UHGV virus genome: UHGV-0373029 | Length of the DNA stretch: 10,027 nt | Strand: one strand, 5' to 3' | DNA from: a virus | Part shown: in pieces, positions 1 through 10,027 of the stretch | Layout of the letters: each line of letters starts with the position of its first letter | Position numbering within the stretch: the first letter of the stretch is position 1 | The notes under the pieces: model-generated | What the model was told of the DNA's origin: nothing | The model's database searches: none | Seen by the model: only the letters and a program-made list of their open reading frames with translations | Made by a program: the position numbers and the translations under genes

Positions 1-156
1 AACAATGAAGAGTTCCATGCACCAACTTTTGAGATTGGTATCCCACTTAACACTTTAAGTGACTTAAAACATCTCACTGCAAGTGACTTTATTGGTGGTC
101 TTAACAATTACCAGCATGCAGGAAAGATTGAAGCCCCTTTGTCAGTAGGTAAATAA
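1..156 (+). CDS. 3' end of a hypothetical protein (partial, begins upstream of window)
   Basis: Frame 1 is open from base 1 to a TAA at 154-156 (51 codons, protein-like ...EEFHAPTFEIGIPLNTLSDLKHLTASDFIGGLNNYQHAGKIEAPLSVGK*), followed directly by the hairpin at 164-187. No start visible, so truncated by the window edge. Not in the ORF track because it lacks a start. Confidence 0.35.
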   Translation, partial: NNEEFHAPTFEIGIPLNTLSDLKHLTASDFIGGLNNYQHAGKIEAPLSVGK

Positions 157-163
157 AACAAAA

Positions 164-187
164 AAGGCTCCCGTAAAAAGGAGCCTT
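164..187 (-). terminator. Intrinsic (rho-independent) terminator hairpin, strongest in minus orientation
   Basis: Perfect 8-bp GC-rich stem AAGGCTCC (164-171) / GGAGCCTT (180-187) with an 8-nt loop. On the minus strand the stem is followed by TTTTTGTTTTATTT (classic U-tract); on the plus strand the downstream tract is weak (TAAACTTTACT). Sits between convergent transcription units. Confidence 0.55.
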
Positions 188-201
188 AAACTTTACTCAC
201 C

Positions 202-666
202 ATGCAAGTTTCGGAAGGTAAACAAGAAGTGTCTATCACAACAAAATTACAGCAGTTAGATAATTATTCCAAAAGTAATTATTCAGCTATTCGTGATTTA
301 CAGTCTGATATGAGGCTGCTTCAGCTAGGGATGGAGAACCAGAAAGTCCAGTTAGAGAATGTTAAGGGTGAGAACGCAAAACTTACTAAGACTCTTGATA
401 AATTCTCTGATAGTGTGAACAATCTGGCTCAATCAGTATCAGCCCTCCAAGCTATTACTGAAAAGAACACAAAGAATACTGAAAAAGCTTTTTCTAAGTT
501 ATCTACGAACTCATCATCAATAGGTGTATCTGTCTTACTTGCGAGATATCTTGCAAGCCTAAAGAACACTTTCTCAATCATGTATTCACTTAGAAGGGAT
601 AAAATGAGTTTCCAGAAGAAGCTACCTAGATTTTTTAGAAGAATTGCTAGGATTGTAGGCATTTAA
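202..666 (+). CDS. Hypothetical protein: N-terminal coiled-coil-like region, C-terminal hydrophobic segment and basic tail
   Basis: 154-codon ORF, very unlikely by chance in AT-rich DNA. Residues 1-100 are Q/L/K/E/N-rich with heptad-like spacing, then a hydrophobic stretch IGVSVLLARYLASL and a basic tail RRDKMSFQKKLPRFFRRIARIVGI. Weak point: no Shine-Dalgarno at useful spacing before ATG 202 (AAGGAG lies 18 nt upstream, inside the hairpin). A 77-aa antisense ORF overlaps it. Confidence 0.5.
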   Translation: MQVSEGKQEVSITTKLQQLDNYSKSNYSAIRDLQSDMRLLQLGMENQKVQLENVKGENAKLTKTLDKFSDSVNNLAQSVSALQAITEKNTKNTEKAFSKLSTNSSSIGVSVLLARYLASLKNTFSIMYSLRRDKMSFQKKLPRFFRRIARIVGI

Positions 667-741
667 TCACCTCATCAGCCAAGATGGTGAGAATACCCAT
701 AAAGAATATTAACACCATCTTAACAATCAGTCAACAAGGGA

Positions 742-3111
742 TTAAGCAGTCCTTACCCAAGCCATTAACTTGTAGAACTGGTTAGTGACGCTAAATGCTG
801 AACCAGAACCAGTACCACCTGTGTTACCGCTAACTGTGTGGCTGTGAGCACCAATACCAACAGTGTGCGAGTGGTTGCCAGTTGTGTTGGTTACACCTGT
901 CCAAGTTCTTGACGCGTGGAAATCAGCAGCAGCACCGTAAGTGAAGTTAGAGCCTGTGAAGCCATGTGAAGCCTGAGAACTACCCATCTGAAACGCACCG
1001 CTCGCAGTGTAGAATGCACTGTTATCACTTCTGAACCAACCAACCACACCAGAAATTTCCATGTTACCTCTATTGTGAGCATGGTTGCCAGTCGTATTTG
1101 TCGTCTTAGTACCATAATCAAATGATGAAGTGGTAGCAGAGAAACTATGCGTGTGTGAAGGTAAGTTACCAACAGATAACGTTACAGAATCTGAACCACC
1201 AGTTGTAGCAACATCTGAACCGTTTGCTGCTGCAATTCTAATAGTTCTGCCAACACCATTATTCAGGTACGTCCAAGTTAGACCAGGAAGTGCTGTATTA
1301 GGGTTAACATTACTGTTAAACCACGTTACAATACCTACTGGATAGATTTTATTCAGGTCTGTAGAGTCACTAATTGCTTCTGCAATCTTCTGGTCAGTCT
1401 CTGCTTTAGTGTATGCACCAATTTCTGAAGGGGTTGGTTTATCTTGGTCTGTATAGATTTTAGCCCAAGCATTCTCAAAACCATACTTATCTCGTGCTGT
1501 CCTGTAAAAAATACCACCATTCTTGTAGATAAACTTAAACTGTGCAGTTGGTGTTGAGCCACCACCGATAAACATCTGATAAACTAGTTGTGATGCACCC
1601 CCAGTTTTCATTGTAACATTATACAGACCAGTTCTAGCATTCCAAGCAATACCATCCTCATCACCAACCTCTGTACCACCGCCAGAAGAGACAGCAAGCA
1701 TGTACCTAGAGTTTGCGACAGATTGCGTATAATATCTGGCATCTAAGTTAGAGAAATCAGAAGGTTGAATCTGTCCAGCTAGAGTTAGTGTTTTGTTGAT
1801 ACTTGCAGATGAGTTACCTAAAACTAACTGAGTTCCAGAAAAACTGTTATTTAGGGTTACATCATTAGTATCTGCCCCACCAACACCCACCCACCATCTT
1901 GATACATTAGCAGTGTCCATACCACGGATATACAATGGTCTGTTCTGAGTAGAGTTTTTCACAATTAGAGTTTCATCATCTGCAACAATTTTCTGTACAC
2001 CATTAAAAGTGTTTTGTGCATTAGTTCTTGCAATCGTACTTAATGTTGCTGCCGGAATATATCTAGAGTCAATGTTAGCCCAATCTGAAGGTTGAACTTG
2101 ACCACCAATTTGAACTGTTTTACTCATAGTAATGGTGTTACCTAGTGAGATTTGTGTTTTTGCTAGATAGTTATAGATGTTTACAATGTTTTCATCACCA
2201 TCGTTACCAATGTACCACTTATTAGCCCCATCTGATTTTCTTGCTTGGATATACAAAGCCGCAGTTGTGTCTACATTTTGCAGAGTGATGGCATTAGCAT
2301 TCTTCTTAATAACAAAATTAGTGAAGGTATTAGAGCCACTAAAAGTGTTATTACCAGTTAACTGTGCAAATCTCTGATTAGCAACTGTCTGAGTAAAGTA
2401 TCTAGCATCTAAGTTAGAGAAATCTGAAGGTTGGACTTGACCAGTGATTCTAAGTGACTTATTAAATGCTGCTGTTGCATCAAGGGTTAACATTGCACCA
2501 GTAGCATGATTGTACAAATATACATTAGTACTGTTTGCATTTCCCTGTCCAACATACCAAGTTTGCTGGTTATTAGAATCTCTGCCTTGAATATATGAAG
2601 CACCTGCATTGGTTGCCTTCTTAAGAGTTAACTGCTCACCATCAGTTACAATTGCTTGCCTAATGCTGAAGTTATTTGTGACAGCAAGCCTTGCATATCT
2701 TGCATCATTCTCTTCATTAGTTCTCATACCAAGTTCATTAGGGCTTGGTTTATTCAAAGTATGATAAACAGTTGCCGACCTTGTGGCATCTGCAATAGTG
2801 AGTTTAAGACCATTTGAGTTAATTTTAAAAGTCTTTAAAACATCCCCAATAGTAATCTCAGAAGAATCTGTAGGGTCAAAGATGGCCTTACCACCGTAAA
2901 GTAACTTGACAATACCTAAATCCCCAACCATAGTACTACCAGCAATCTGAACAAACCTTTCTAGTTTGAAGGAAGCTAAGAAGTCTTGATACGTCATTCT
3001 ACGGTCTTCATCACCCAGCATTTCAGGTCTTTTCTTAACTCTGATGTGTAATAGGTCTTCTGAACGAATTGTGTCGATTGAGTTTAATTGACTCAATTTG
3101 TAATCTGCCAT
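742..3111 (-). CDS. Long tail fibre protein (P2 gpH-like shaft with three ~110-aa repeats; collar-like C-terminal tip with HxH motifs)
   Basis: 789-aa ORF. Three internal repeats carry GQ(V/I)QPSD(F/W)(S/A)N(L/I)D(A/S)RY at residues 224-238, 337-351 and 447-461. C-terminal ~200 aa has a collar-like motif (YPVGIVTWFNSN...SVTLSVGNLPSHTHS), then a Gly/Ser/Thr-rich region with HTH, HAH, HSH, HSH and a ...AWVRTA end shared with the 391-aa fibre. SD-like AAGAGGA precedes the ATG. Confidence 0.9.
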   Translation of the reverse strand: MADYKLSQLNSIDTIRSEDLLHIRVKKRPEMLGDEDRRMTYQDFLASFKLERFVQIAGSTMVGDLGIVKLLYGGKAIFDPTDSSEITIGDVLKTFKINSNGLKLTIADATRSATVYHTLNKPSPNELGMRTNEENDARYARLAVTNNFSIRQAIVTDGEQLTLKKATNAGASYIQGRDSNNQQTWYVGQGNANSTNVYLYNHATGAMLTLDATAAFNKSLRITGQVQPSDFSNLDARYFTQTVANQRFAQLTGNNTFSGSNTFTNFVIKKNANAITLQNVDTTAALYIQARKSDGANKWYIGNDGDENIVNIYNYLAKTQISLGNTITMSKTVQIGGQVQPSDWANIDSRYIPAATLSTIARTNAQNTFNGVQKIVADDETLIVKNSTQNRPLYIRGMDTANVSRWWVGVGGADTNDVTLNNSFSGTQLVLGNSSASINKTLTLAGQIQPSDFSNLDARYYTQSVANSRYMLAVSSGGGTEVGDEDGIAWNARTGLYNVTMKTGGASQLVYQMFIGGGSTPTAQFKFIYKNGGIFYRTARDKYGFENAWAKIYTDQDKPTPSEIGAYTKAETDQKIAEAISDSTDLNKIYPVGIVTWFNSNVNPNTALPGLTWTYLNNGVGRTIRIAAANGSDVATTGGSDSVTLSVGNLPSHTHSFSATTSSFDYGTKTTNTTGNHAHNRGNMEISGVVGWFRSDNSAFYTASGAFQMGSSQASHGFTGSNFTYGAAADFHASRTWTGVTNTTGNHSHTVGIGAHSHTVSGNTGGTGSGSAFSVTNQFYKLMAWVRTA
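1702..2598 (-). repeat. Three in-frame tandem repeat units (~330 bp each) inside the long tail-fibre gene
   Basis: Protein repeats at residues ~172-470. At DNA level, 1733-1790 and 2399-2456 share near-identical stretches (e.g. ATCTAAGTTAGAGAAATC then GAAGGTTG); the middle copy around 2071-2115 is more diverged (CAATCTGAAGGTTGAACTTGACCACC). Confidence 0.8.
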
Positions 3112-3130
3112 TATAAATTTTCCTCTTAAA

Positions 3131-3148
3131 AGGGGCTACAAAGCCCCT
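3131..3148 (-). promoter_or_regulatory. Intergenic stem-loop between the two tail-fibre genes (possible attenuator or mRNA processing/stability element)
   Basis: In the only sizeable intergenic gap of the operon (3112-3157): 7-bp GC-rich stem AGGGGCT (3131-3137) / AGCCCCT (3142-3148), 4-nt loop. On the minus strand it is followed by TTT and then the SD AAGAGGA of the 789-aa gene. The U-tract is short, so not a confident full terminator. Confidence 0.3.
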
Positions 3149-3157
3149 GTAAAGAAA

Positions 3158-4333
3158 TTAAGCTGTTCTCTGCCATACATATACGACAAAAGATGGCTGC
3201 TCAACACTGAAAGCTTGACCACCACCAACAGAACCAGATGTTCCTGAGTGTGTATGTTCAGAGCTAGAGACAGTAACAGCACCCGTATGACTGTGTGAAC
3301 CAATATTAACAGTGTGGCTATGAGCACCAATTGCAACAGTATGGTTATGAGCACCAGATGATGCAGTTGTGCCTGAGAAGCTATGGGTGTGAGCACCTGC
3401 TAAATCAGTATACGTATTATTATTAACCCCAGCATAAGCAGATGCAGTAATAGCATCCCCCCCACTTCTATCATTACCTCTCAGTGGTACTCTATGGTTA
3501 TGGTTACCATCATTACTTGTCGTGCCGCTAAACGTGTGAGTGTGAGCACCAGCACTATTAGTCGTTTTTGTACCGTAATCAAAAGTTGATGTACTTTTTG
3601 AACCATAATCAAAACTAGAGATAGATACGCTTGCAGAGTGTGTGTGACCACCACCTGTTAAATAGATAGAGTGGGTGTGTGCTGGTAAATTATTATTTGT
3701 TAATGCTACAGTCTGAGAACCGAACGTTGAACCAACAGGTCTAGCTTCTGTATCATAACCAACAAGCGCCCTACCTTTAGAAACCAACTCCCAAGTACCT
3801 CCACAAAGCAAGTAAGTGGATGGGTTAGCAGAGTTAACAGACAGATGAATAGTCCCCACTGGATATGATGCTTGGATAGCTTTGTATAGATTATTCACTG
3901 CTCTCGCGGTAGCATATTTATCAGCATCTTCATTGTATAAGTTGGATGTTGTCCAGTTCTGAACATTACTTAACCCTACCTGTGCTTTCGTTGTATTGTG
4001 TGGGTTACTTTTGTCGTCGATATGTCTCTGAATTAAACTGTTCACTTCATCTGACGACATAATCTGTAGATTTGCTCTTGCCTCAGCAACATCTACAATG
4101 TCTGACAAGTTATTAGCTGCGACCAATTGGAGTGAGTTAATAACATTATCAAGACCAACTTGCGATTTAGTTACACCATGAGGGTTATTCCTCAAAGATG
4201 TGTGAGGTGCTAACAACTGTTCAAGCGTACATCTTTTATCCTCAACACCTTGCTTAAGATGGAAGATATCACTCAAATCAATTGGTAAGGCCGCTTGTGG
4301 CAAGGCACTAATTTGAATTTCACCTACTGCCAT
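3158..4333 (-). CDS. Tail fibre / receptor-binding protein (two phage fibre repeats, collar-like domain, His-x-His-rich tip)
   Basis: 391-aa ORF with SD AGGAG 8 nt before the ATG. Two copies of NPH(G/N)(V/T)TK(S/A)QVGL(D/S)NV (residues ~50-64 and ~110-124). Collar-like motif YPVGTIHLSVNS...LLCGGTWELV...SQTVALTNNNLPAHTHS. C-terminal 180 aa is Gly/Ser/Thr-rich with nine HxH motifs and the SFDYG(S/T)K(S/T)T motif twice, ending ...VWQRTA. Confidence 0.9.
   Translation of the reverse strand: MAVGEIQISALPQAALPIDLSDIFHLKQGVEDKRCTLEQLLAPHTSLRNNPHGVTKSQVGLDNVINSLQLVAANNLSDIVDVAEARANLQIMSSDEVNSLIQRHIDDKSNPHNTTKAQVGLSNVQNWTTSNLYNEDADKYATARAVNNLYKAIQASYPVGTIHLSVNSANPSTYLLCGGTWELVSKGRALVGYDTEARPVGSTFGSQTVALTNNNLPAHTHSIYLTGGGHTHSASVSISSFDYGSKSTSTFDYGTKTTNSAGAHTHTFSGTTSNDGNHNHRVPLRGNDRSGGDAITASAYAGVNNNTYTDLAGAHTHSFSGTTASSGAHNHTVAIGAHSHTVNIGSHSHTGAVTVSSSEHTHSGTSGSVGGGQAFSVEQPSFVVYVWQRTA

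Positions 4334-6964: not shown

Positions 6965-10027
<3,063 letters not shown>

Follow-up and report, generated by a model that had tools for sequence, protein, structure and literature searches.

We analysed a 10,027-nucleotide (nt) stretch of the phage genome UHGV-0373029 (hereafter the window), in which two tail fibre genes lie one after the other on the minus strand. Megablast matched the window to 277 phage records, nearly all of them from Felixounavirus and the best at 97.6% identity; the nearest relatives are the Escherichia coli phages PHB11, JN01, pEP20, KEP1 and EC6 together with O157 typing phages (93–98% nt identity). By this comparison the phage is a Felixounavirus, that is, a Felix-O1-like E. 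coli phage. An earlier reading of the sequence alone (the sequence-only reading) had proposed that the two fibres bear homologous C-terminal tips, rich in His-x-His (HxH) motifs, on different shafts. We consider it highly probable that the genes encode the two baseplate fibres of a Felixounavirus and that both fibres end in a receptor-binding tip of the phage T4 gp37 type. Both genes were confirmed at the expected positions and lengths (in amino acids, aa), each as an open reading frame (ORF):

3158–4333, minus strand: short tail fibre gene, 391 aa plus stop codon (phrog_2097 tail fiber, 5.5e-138; synteny in 29 loci).
742–3111, minus strand: long tail fibre gene, 789 aa plus stop codon (phrog_4277 over the full length, 1370 bits).

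The short fibre is the orthologue of gp26 of phage Bas63 (79% identity) and of Sf14 gp52, and the long fibre that of Bas63 gp27 (65% identity) and Sf14 gp53. The differences from the two Bas63 proteins cluster in the tips, the N-termini, collars and C-termini being near-identical.

The C-terminal modules of the two fibres are homologous, as had been claimed: residues 157–342 of the short fibre align with residues 590–760 of the long fibre at 34% identity (BLASTP, E = 3e-13), and no BLASTP alignment better than E = 2.5 was found between other regions of the two proteins. The motifs YPVG...NLP(A/S)HTHS, SFDYG(S/T)K and W(Q/V)RTA occur in both tips. The predicted numbers of HxH motifs are exact, with nine in the short fibre (at residues 219, 230, 264, 278, 315, 329, 338, 347 and 360) and four in the long fibre (653, 677, 747 and 756). 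These counts exceed those in every one of 5,000 residue shuffles, which gave means of 1.4 for the short and 0.19 for the long fibre and maxima of 6 and 3, respectively.

The N-termini had been described as unrelated, which holds at the level of ordinary sequence comparison. Both share, however, a short motif, I..sD..H...G-ED-[KR]-R-[CM]-T...LA, for which hhalign of the two N-termini gave P = 0.0055 over 27 columns, yet a probability of only 6.6%, and the baseplate-binding domain is reported to be structurally conserved in both Bas63 fibres in a cryo-electron microscopy (cryo-EM) study (PMC12609058). In the shaft of the short fibre, the motif NPH(G/N)(V/T)TK(S/A)QVGL(D/S)NV occurs twice, at residues 50–64 and 110–124, and residues ~40–150 are matched by many PHROG tail-protein families. 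The shaft of the long fibre includes a phage Mu S-like domain at residues 471–577, which matches the Mu tail fibre S protein in PDB entry 8JU3 (E = 1.3e-23).

The tip of T4 gp37 consists of a collar domain, D10 (residues 811–881 and 1010–1026), into which a needle domain, D11, is inserted; D11 has a stem (882–931 and 960–1009) and a tip (932–959) and holds seven iron atoms (PMC6957217). In PDB searches, residues 146–362 of the short fibre matched chain residues 18–227 of the crystal structure of this iron-containing tip (2XGF, E = 7.5e-27). Residues 647–768 of the long fibre matched it at E = 1.4e-5, over the needle only, and a profile built solely from long-fibre tips with four HxH motifs returned 2XGF as its sole PDB match (E = 1.6e-4). 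The short-fibre collar also matched the T4 gp10 C-terminal structures 2FKK and 5HX2 (E = 5e-6 to 2e-5). Together with the Pfam matches, these alignments divide the two fibres as follows:

3683–3871, minus strand: short-fibre collar, first half, aa 155–217, YPVG...NNNLPA (Pfam Gp10_C, 74 bits against a cut-off of 27; aligns to T4 gp37 D10 in 2XGF).
3494–3682, minus strand: short-fibre needle, ascending strand, aa 218–280 (aligned with T4 883–931, with the spacing pattern of T4).
3395–3493, minus strand: short-fibre head or hairpin turn, aa 281–313, a putative receptor-contacting cassette (aligned with the T4 tip subdomain 932–959; PMC6957217).
3245–3394, minus strand: short-fibre needle, descending strand, aa 314–363, with HxH at 315, 329, 338, 347 and 360 (aligned with T4 966–998).
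3161–3244, minus strand: short-fibre C-terminal return into the collar, aa 364–391, ...QAFSVEQPSFVVYVWQRTA (equivalent to T4 D10 residues 1010–1026, ...NIAFNYIVRLA; PMC6957217).
1351–3111, minus strand: long-fibre baseplate-binding N-terminus and shaft, aa 1–587 (Pfam PF20744 three times, gp37_trimer, 5e-69; PF12604, 1e-19).
1159–1350, minus strand: long-fibre collar, first half, aa 588–651 (Gp10_C, 25.8 bits against a cut-off of 27; 37% identical to the short-fibre collar).
1075–1158, minus strand: long-fibre needle, ascending strand, aa 652–679, with HxH at 653 and 677 and one SFDYGTK repeat (aligns with T4 883/915).
877–1074, minus strand: long-fibre enlarged head cassette, aa 680–745, NRGNMEISG...FRSD...FYTASGAF...ASRTWTG (also in prophage fibres).
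832–876, minus strand: long-fibre needle, descending strand, aa 746–760, with HxH at 747 and 756, GNHSHTVGIGAHSHTV (aligns with T4 980/989; Phage_fiber repeat, 23.1 bits).
745–831, minus strand: long-fibre C-terminal return into the collar, aa 761–789, ...SAFSVTNQFYKLMAWVRTA (aligned with the short-fibre and T4 C-termini).

The arrangement of the HxH motifs follows that of T4. The gp37 motifs lie at 883, 915 and 929 on the ascending strand and at 966, 980, 989 and 998 on the descending strand, and alanine at H929 or H931 is lethal to T4 (PMC6957217). The ascending strand of the short fibre contains HxH at 219, 230, 264 and 278 together with two SFDYG(S/T)K repeats. Its motifs at 230, 264 and 278 and at 315, 329, 338 and 347 reproduce the T4 pattern, with spacings of 34,14/14,9,9 against 32,14/14,9,9 in T4, and the motifs at 219 and 360 are additional, one collar-proximal on each strand. 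The long-fibre motifs at 653 and 677 and at 747 and 756 correspond to T4 883 and 915 and T4 980 and 989. At the C-terminus, the alignment sets the ...AFSV...W(Q/V)RTA of the two fibres against ...IAFNYIVRLA of T4.

We compared the tips with Pfam families at gathering thresholds of 27 bits for PF21939 (Gp10_C) and 20 bits for PF03335 (Phage_fiber, a 14-residue His-containing repeat). The short fibre lies well above the Gp10_C threshold (68.9 bits for the whole protein and 74.2 bits for the tip), and nearly all full-length homologues of the long fibre have a precomputed PF21939 assignment. The Phage_fiber repeat scores above threshold in the long-fibre tip (23.1 bits, three stretches) and below it in the short-fibre tip (15.7 bits, four stretches). 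Neither tip matches PF07484 (Collar, the T4 gp12 type) at E ≤ 10, and T4 gp12 chains were unmatched by either fibre in PDB searches at E ≤ 1; membership of the gp12/tail-collar PF07484 family was rejected on these grounds. Because 2XGF and Gp10_C are matched and PF07484 and gp12 are not, the tips belong with gp37 and gp10. The suggested kinship to collar and metal-binding tip families thus stands for gp37 and gp10 but not for the gp12 zinc site. An AlphaFold monomer model of the long-fibre tip, made from a 66-sequence alignment, has a mean predicted local distance difference test score (pLDDT) of 65.5, with values of ~85–90 in the collar and 79–90 over the collar and C-terminal strands.

We propose that both fibres are homotrimers, each of which has a baseplate-binding N-terminus and a shaft of its own. 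A collar domain, with the fold of T4 gp10/gp11/gp12, would be interrupted by a long hairpin, such that the chain goes out along the needle, makes a small head at the turn and comes back, and the final ~28 residues complete the collar. Such a return of the C-terminus to the collar would explain the shared ...W(Q/V)RTA end and its likeness to the ...IAFNYIVRLA of T4, and this path of the chain has been published for the orthologues in Bas63 (PMC12609058). In the trimer, each HxH motif would meet its two counterparts from the other chains at the threefold axis, the six histidines making an octahedral site; an iron ion occupies every such site in T4, where each is essential (PMC6957217). The short fibre would have nine such sites, corresponding to the seven of T4 plus one collar-proximal site per strand, and a 33-aa head. 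The long fibre would have four, its distal stem and tip being replaced by a 66-aa head. The distal needle and head behave as an exchangeable cassette bordered by SFDYGTK on one side and HxHxVxIGAHxHTV on the other.

The pattern of conservation was assessed by comparing each fibre of the window with 26 other distinct sequences from the genus. Both histidines were retained in all 26 for seven of the nine short-fibre HxH motifs, including all those on the descending strand, and for all four motifs of the long fibre. The two remaining motifs, which lie distally on the ascending strand of the short fibre, are kept in 19 of 26 (H264/H266) and 22 of 26 (H278/H280) sequences. Mean identity to the window is 82–95% in the collars and 66–84% in the stems. 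For the short fibre, the first half of the collar is 82% and the C-terminal return 81% identical on average; for the long fibre the corresponding conservation is 90% and 95%. The mean falls to 29% in the head of the short fibre and 23% in that of the long fibre. HxH counts across the genus are 7 or 9 in short fibres and 4, 6 or 7 in long fibres. Little or no variation occurs in the HxH columns of a 66-sequence alignment of distant homologues of the long-fibre tip, whose mean column identity is 26%. This pattern is that expected of a structural, metal-binding scaffold bearing a fast-evolving binding surface.

The sequence-only reading had also pointed to near-identical DNA stretches in the two genes as a basis for exchange of tips. 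A blastn comparison of the two genes mapped two blocks, which fall at the two cassette borders:

3307–3343: 32 of 37 nt identical to 831–867; encodes H-x-H-T-V-x-I-G-A-H-S-H-T-V, the downstream cassette border (repeat families D2 and D4).
3556–3592: 30 of 37 nt identical to 1095–1131; encodes SFDYGTKTTN, the upstream cassette border (repeat families D5 and D7).

The best core, 19 of 20 nt, pairs 3312–3331 with 836–855 and encodes IGAHSHT. No exact match between the two genes exceeds 12 nt, a length reached by TTTGATTATGGT (3602–3613 against 1111–1122) at an adjacent copy of the FDYG repeat; codon-shuffled controls reached a 12-nt exact match in 99 of 300 trials. The similar stretches therefore exist, but their identity had been overstated and their positions given about 9 nt out of register, and because the longest match does not rise above the codon-shuffled controls we rejected DNA identity within this genome as evidence of recombination. 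Nor is a recent exchange visible in the window's own pair of fibres, since their heads are unrelated (20–46% nt identity).

The claim of tip exchange is nevertheless right in substance, on evidence that comes from relatives. Three of 28 Felixounavirus genomes (L011, L007 and L026) have one head cassette, ...VGG(H/R)YGGDSIGGKQRVQ.SGT.Q..., on both fibres, the tips concerned lying at about 9.0–11.8 kb in each locus. In L011, a contig of 87,603 bp, the short and long fibre genes share a 200-nt block at 91% identity within collars that are 45–60% identical. In this contig, 30 consecutive codons (90 nt) are 100% identical between the two genes, which indicates a recent exchange between them; L007 and L026 share the same block at ~80%. 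Exchange also crosses genus boundaries. The head and distal stem of the long fibres of L014 and L027 match T4 gene 37 (L033) over 287 nt at 88% and 93%, respectively; by their sequence, these heads are the result of horizontal exchange between Felixounavirus and Tequatrovirus adhesins, in agreement with the 54% identity to the T4 adhesin reported for VpaE1 (PMC4690856). Four prophage fibres from E. coli and Citrobacter (P0107, P0112, P0116 and P0117) contain the 66-aa long-fibre head of the window, here joined to a collar (PF07484) and a C-terminus (...NIAFNYIVRLA) of the T4 type; this head thus functions on yet another, third type of frame.

In all cases compared, the exchanged blocks in relatives are bordered by the SFDYGTK and GxHxHxVxIGAHxHTV motifs, the same two sites at which the fibre genes of the window retain 81–86% DNA identity. 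For T-even phages, exchange at or near conserved adhesin motifs is established, according to the citation of Tetart et al. (1996, 1998) in PMC3157838. Comparison with relatives thus leaves tip exchange well supported. The Felixounavirus papers cited here make no mention of exchange between a phage's own two fibres, and 'recombination' as a word occurs in neither PMC12609058 nor PMC8300805. The sharing of heads between fibres is a modest comparative observation, and it is located outside this window.

The two tips need not have come from one another. They could be independent acquisitions from a common pool of enterobacterial phage and prophage tips, an explanation that we regard as quite possible, if somewhat short of probable. 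The collars of this genome are only 37% identical and its heads unrelated, relatives of either tip number in the hundreds among prophages and other phage groups, and the long-fibre head sits on T4-type collars in E. coli prophages, all of which fit such a pool. Against it stands the direct exchange between fibre genes in relatives, exemplified by the 90 identical nucleotides of L011. This explanation concerns evolution rather than function, and it is compatible with the assignment of both fibres as gp37-type receptor-binding proteins.

That assignment has itself to be set against several observations that weigh in the other direction. For the long-fibre tip, the homology to 2XGF is of modest strength and leaves out the head, and the long fibre reaches only 24.3–25.8 bits with Gp10_C, just under the threshold. 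The long-fibre head is poorly modelled by AlphaFold (pLDDT <55). Foldseek of the long-fibre-tip monomer model against the PDB returned nothing at E ≤ 0.001; its top weak hits, a gp10-like baseplate protein and the Bizionia C24 fibre tip, were not used as evidence, nor was the search itself. Homology, conservation of the motifs and mosaicism of the cassettes are shown directly by the sequences compared here; that the tips bind metal, which metal it is and how the trimer is arranged we infer from homology to T4 and from the published Bas63 models. Finally, the head of the short fibre lies against the sheath in virions of Bas63 (PMC12609058), which allows a role other than receptor binding.

From this last observation it could be argued that the short-fibre tip is a structural or regulatory element, docked on the sheath until triggering, and that host range is set by the long fibre alone. 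We think this improbable. The short-fibre head is hypervariable (29%) in a frame conserved at 81–90%, a combination typical of host-driven diversification, whereas a surface that docks on the nearly invariant sheath should co-vary with it, and in relatives one head cassette serves short and long fibres alike. Relatives also require two surface structures: the Felixounavirus O157 typing phages TP11 and TP15, both close relatives, need the group-4 capsule and the terminal GlcIII of the R3 lipopolysaccharide (LPS) core (bioRxiv 10.64898/2026.07.23.740414), and TP15 is 93% nt-identical to the window. Given its two unrelated heads, the phage of the window probably recognises two different surface structures. 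Two receptor specificities are therefore likely, we infer, and consistent with the dependence of TP11 and TP15 on both the capsule and the LPS core GlcIII.

It is very improbable that the HxH repeats are mainly recombination motifs or repeats of a β-structure without metal, or that they bind a metal other than iron: the cassette borders do coincide with the HxH-containing GxHxHxVxIGAHxHTV, T-even exchanges near conserved adhesin motifs are documented (Tetart et al. 1996, 1998, as cited in PMC3157838) and sequence cannot identify the metal, but in the protein the histidines are invariant even in places where the DNA has diverged to ~50–70%, their spacing reproduces the T4 iron sites, the iron-binding histidines of T4 are essential (PMC6957217), and the longest exact DNA match of 12 nt, no more than in codon-shuffled controls, implies that selection acts on the protein and not on the DNA. 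The suggestion of metal-stabilised, gp37-type tips on two shafts is supported by the homology to 2XGF, the Gp10_C collar matches and the work on Bas63 gp26 and gp27 (PMC12609058), and the tips are probably metal-bound.

A more specific proposal combines exchange and specificity. The distal needle and head would be a plug-in cassette, exchanged within a phage from one fibre to the other as well as between phages; the heads shared by both fibres in three of 28 genomes, the T4 gp37 heads in other genomes and the presence of the window's long-fibre head in E. coli prophage fibres fit this proposal. In this phage, the unusual long-fibre allele, with four metal sites and a 66-aa head, would be the determinant for an O157-associated surface structure, for example the group-4 capsule, and the short fibre, with nine sites, would read the LPS core. 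We offer this proposal tentatively and think it less likely than not.

A gp37-like tip shared by both fibres is already known in this group of phages, having been published in 2015 and 2025 (PMC4690856, PMC11821841, PMC12609058), and the window adds only another pair of alleles. For VpaE1, the C-termini of both Felix-O1-like fibres were reported as homologous to the T4 gp37 adhesin (2015; PMC4690856). Sf14 gp52 and gp53 were described as having gp10-C-like and gp37-like parts (2025; PMC11821841). In Bas63, both fibres were assigned a gp37-like tip of collar, HxH needle and head from cryo-EM density and AlphaFold (2025; PMC12609058), and the same paper counted seven and six HxH motifs and mapped high variability to the tips. 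The PhageMaP preprint on Bas63 yielded nothing on the fibres.

The closest counterparts of the two fibres are gp26/gp27 of Bas63 (Escherichia phage JohannRWettstein), gp52/gp53 of Sf14 and gp74/gp75 of VpaE1, which belong to the same genus or subfamily and share the gene order of the window. Bas63 resembles the window in N-termini, collars and C-termini and differs from it in HxH number (seven and six against nine and four) and in its needle and head alleles. The long-fibre allele of the window, with a 66-aa head and a very short needle, is common to wV8, HY02 and O157 phages of the EC6/PHB11 type. In EC6 (L002, 9382–11752) and in L028 (9380–11723) two overlapping ORFs stand in place of a single long fibre gene, with 541 and 259 aa in the former and 453 and 311 aa in the latter, probably through frameshifts or sequencing errors; the long fibres of EC6 and Si3 were flagged as incomplete in the Bas63 paper (PMC12609058).

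With T4 gp37 the window fibres share the collar split by a hairpin needle, HxH motifs on both strands at equal spacing, the SFDYGTK and GIGAHxHTV motifs and the C-terminal return, and some Felixounavirus long fibres have a head 93% nt-identical to that of T4. The collars of the window, however, are nearer to Pfam Gp10_C than to the PF07484 Collar model, and the fibres have nine or four HxH motifs in place of seven. The fibres that bear these tips each consist of one protein and join directly onto a simple Mu-like baseplate, whereas T4 has a four-protein long fibre, and no gp38-like gene adjoins the fibre genes in the window. T4 gp12 and gp10 have the collar fold family in common with the window tips, but gp12 has a single metal site (zinc, HxH) and a different head, and gp10 has no HxH needle. 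Enterobacterial prophage fibres (for example P0107 and P0116, and homologues from Erwinia, Photorhabdus and Providencia) contain the same collar–needle–head module, with Gp10_C or Collar and Phage_fiber repeats, on the different N-terminal shafts PF03406 and PF12571. Those of E. coli and Citrobacter prophages have a collar and C-terminus of the T4 type and not of the Felixounavirus type.

All long ORFs of the window lie on the minus strand and form a baseplate-and-fibre module of the myophage type, with the fibres (391 aa, then 789 aa) at its end. The genes that precede them encode a plug resembling Pam3 gp18, the hub, a gp138-type spike, wedge proteins (Baseplate_J), a DUF2612-like protein and a 100-aa protein. 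The gene order recurs unchanged in EC6, pEP20 and Bas63, as annotated in their records, and in 29 IMG/VR loci. The fibre genes follow downstream of those for the baseplate wedge and the 100-aa protein, as in Felixounavirus, which together with their sequence marks them as orthologues of the fibre genes of that genus. Within the window, which was the extent of the search, no ORF matches a fibre chaperone family of the gp38 or gp57A type; Sf14 is reported to be without Mu-type fibre chaperones (PMC11821841). The central spike (207 aa; 7383–8006, minus strand) has an HxH of its own, H188-x-H190, close to its C-terminus (residues 188–191), with the same residue numbers as the HxH reported for Bas63 and Sf14 as the probable iron site of the puncturing apex.

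Downstream of the fibres lie two small genes of phrog_402 and phrog_4038, families without known function. In this part of the window (1–741), a 288-nt segment at 198–485 is inverted relative to all 286 related Felixounavirus records, to which the segment itself is nevertheless 98–99.7% identical, and 94 nt adjoining it are deleted. The inversion and deletion disrupt the conserved 123-aa phrog_4038 gene downstream of the long fibre, which is annotated as 'holin' in some records and whose product has an N-terminal transmembrane segment and a coiled coil; they also extend the small gene next to it, from 65 to 77 aa, and give rise to a 154-aa ORF on the plus strand (202–666). No inverted repeats longer than 8–9 nt flank the segment, and the inversion could be either a real rearrangement or an assembly artefact. 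At 164–187, a perfect 8-bp stem (AAGGCTCC N8 GGAGCCTT) with runs of A and T on its flanks looks like a bidirectional terminator. On one side of it the minus-strand fibre operon ends, and on the other lies the 3′ end of a thymidylate synthase gene, which is on the plus strand and continues beyond the left edge of the window.

The fibres decide the choice of host in Felix-O1-like phages, including E. coli O157:H7 and Salmonella, and because they decide which bacteria can be infected they are relevant to phage typing, biocontrol and therapy. To the alleles already described, the window adds a pair with nine and four HxH motifs and an enlarged long-fibre head. The cassette works on at least three frames, namely the Felixounavirus short fibre, the Felixounavirus long fibre and the T4-type or prophage fibres, and its fixed borders, SFDYGTK upstream and HxHxVxIGAHxHTV downstream, offer a rational cut-and-paste site for retargeting.

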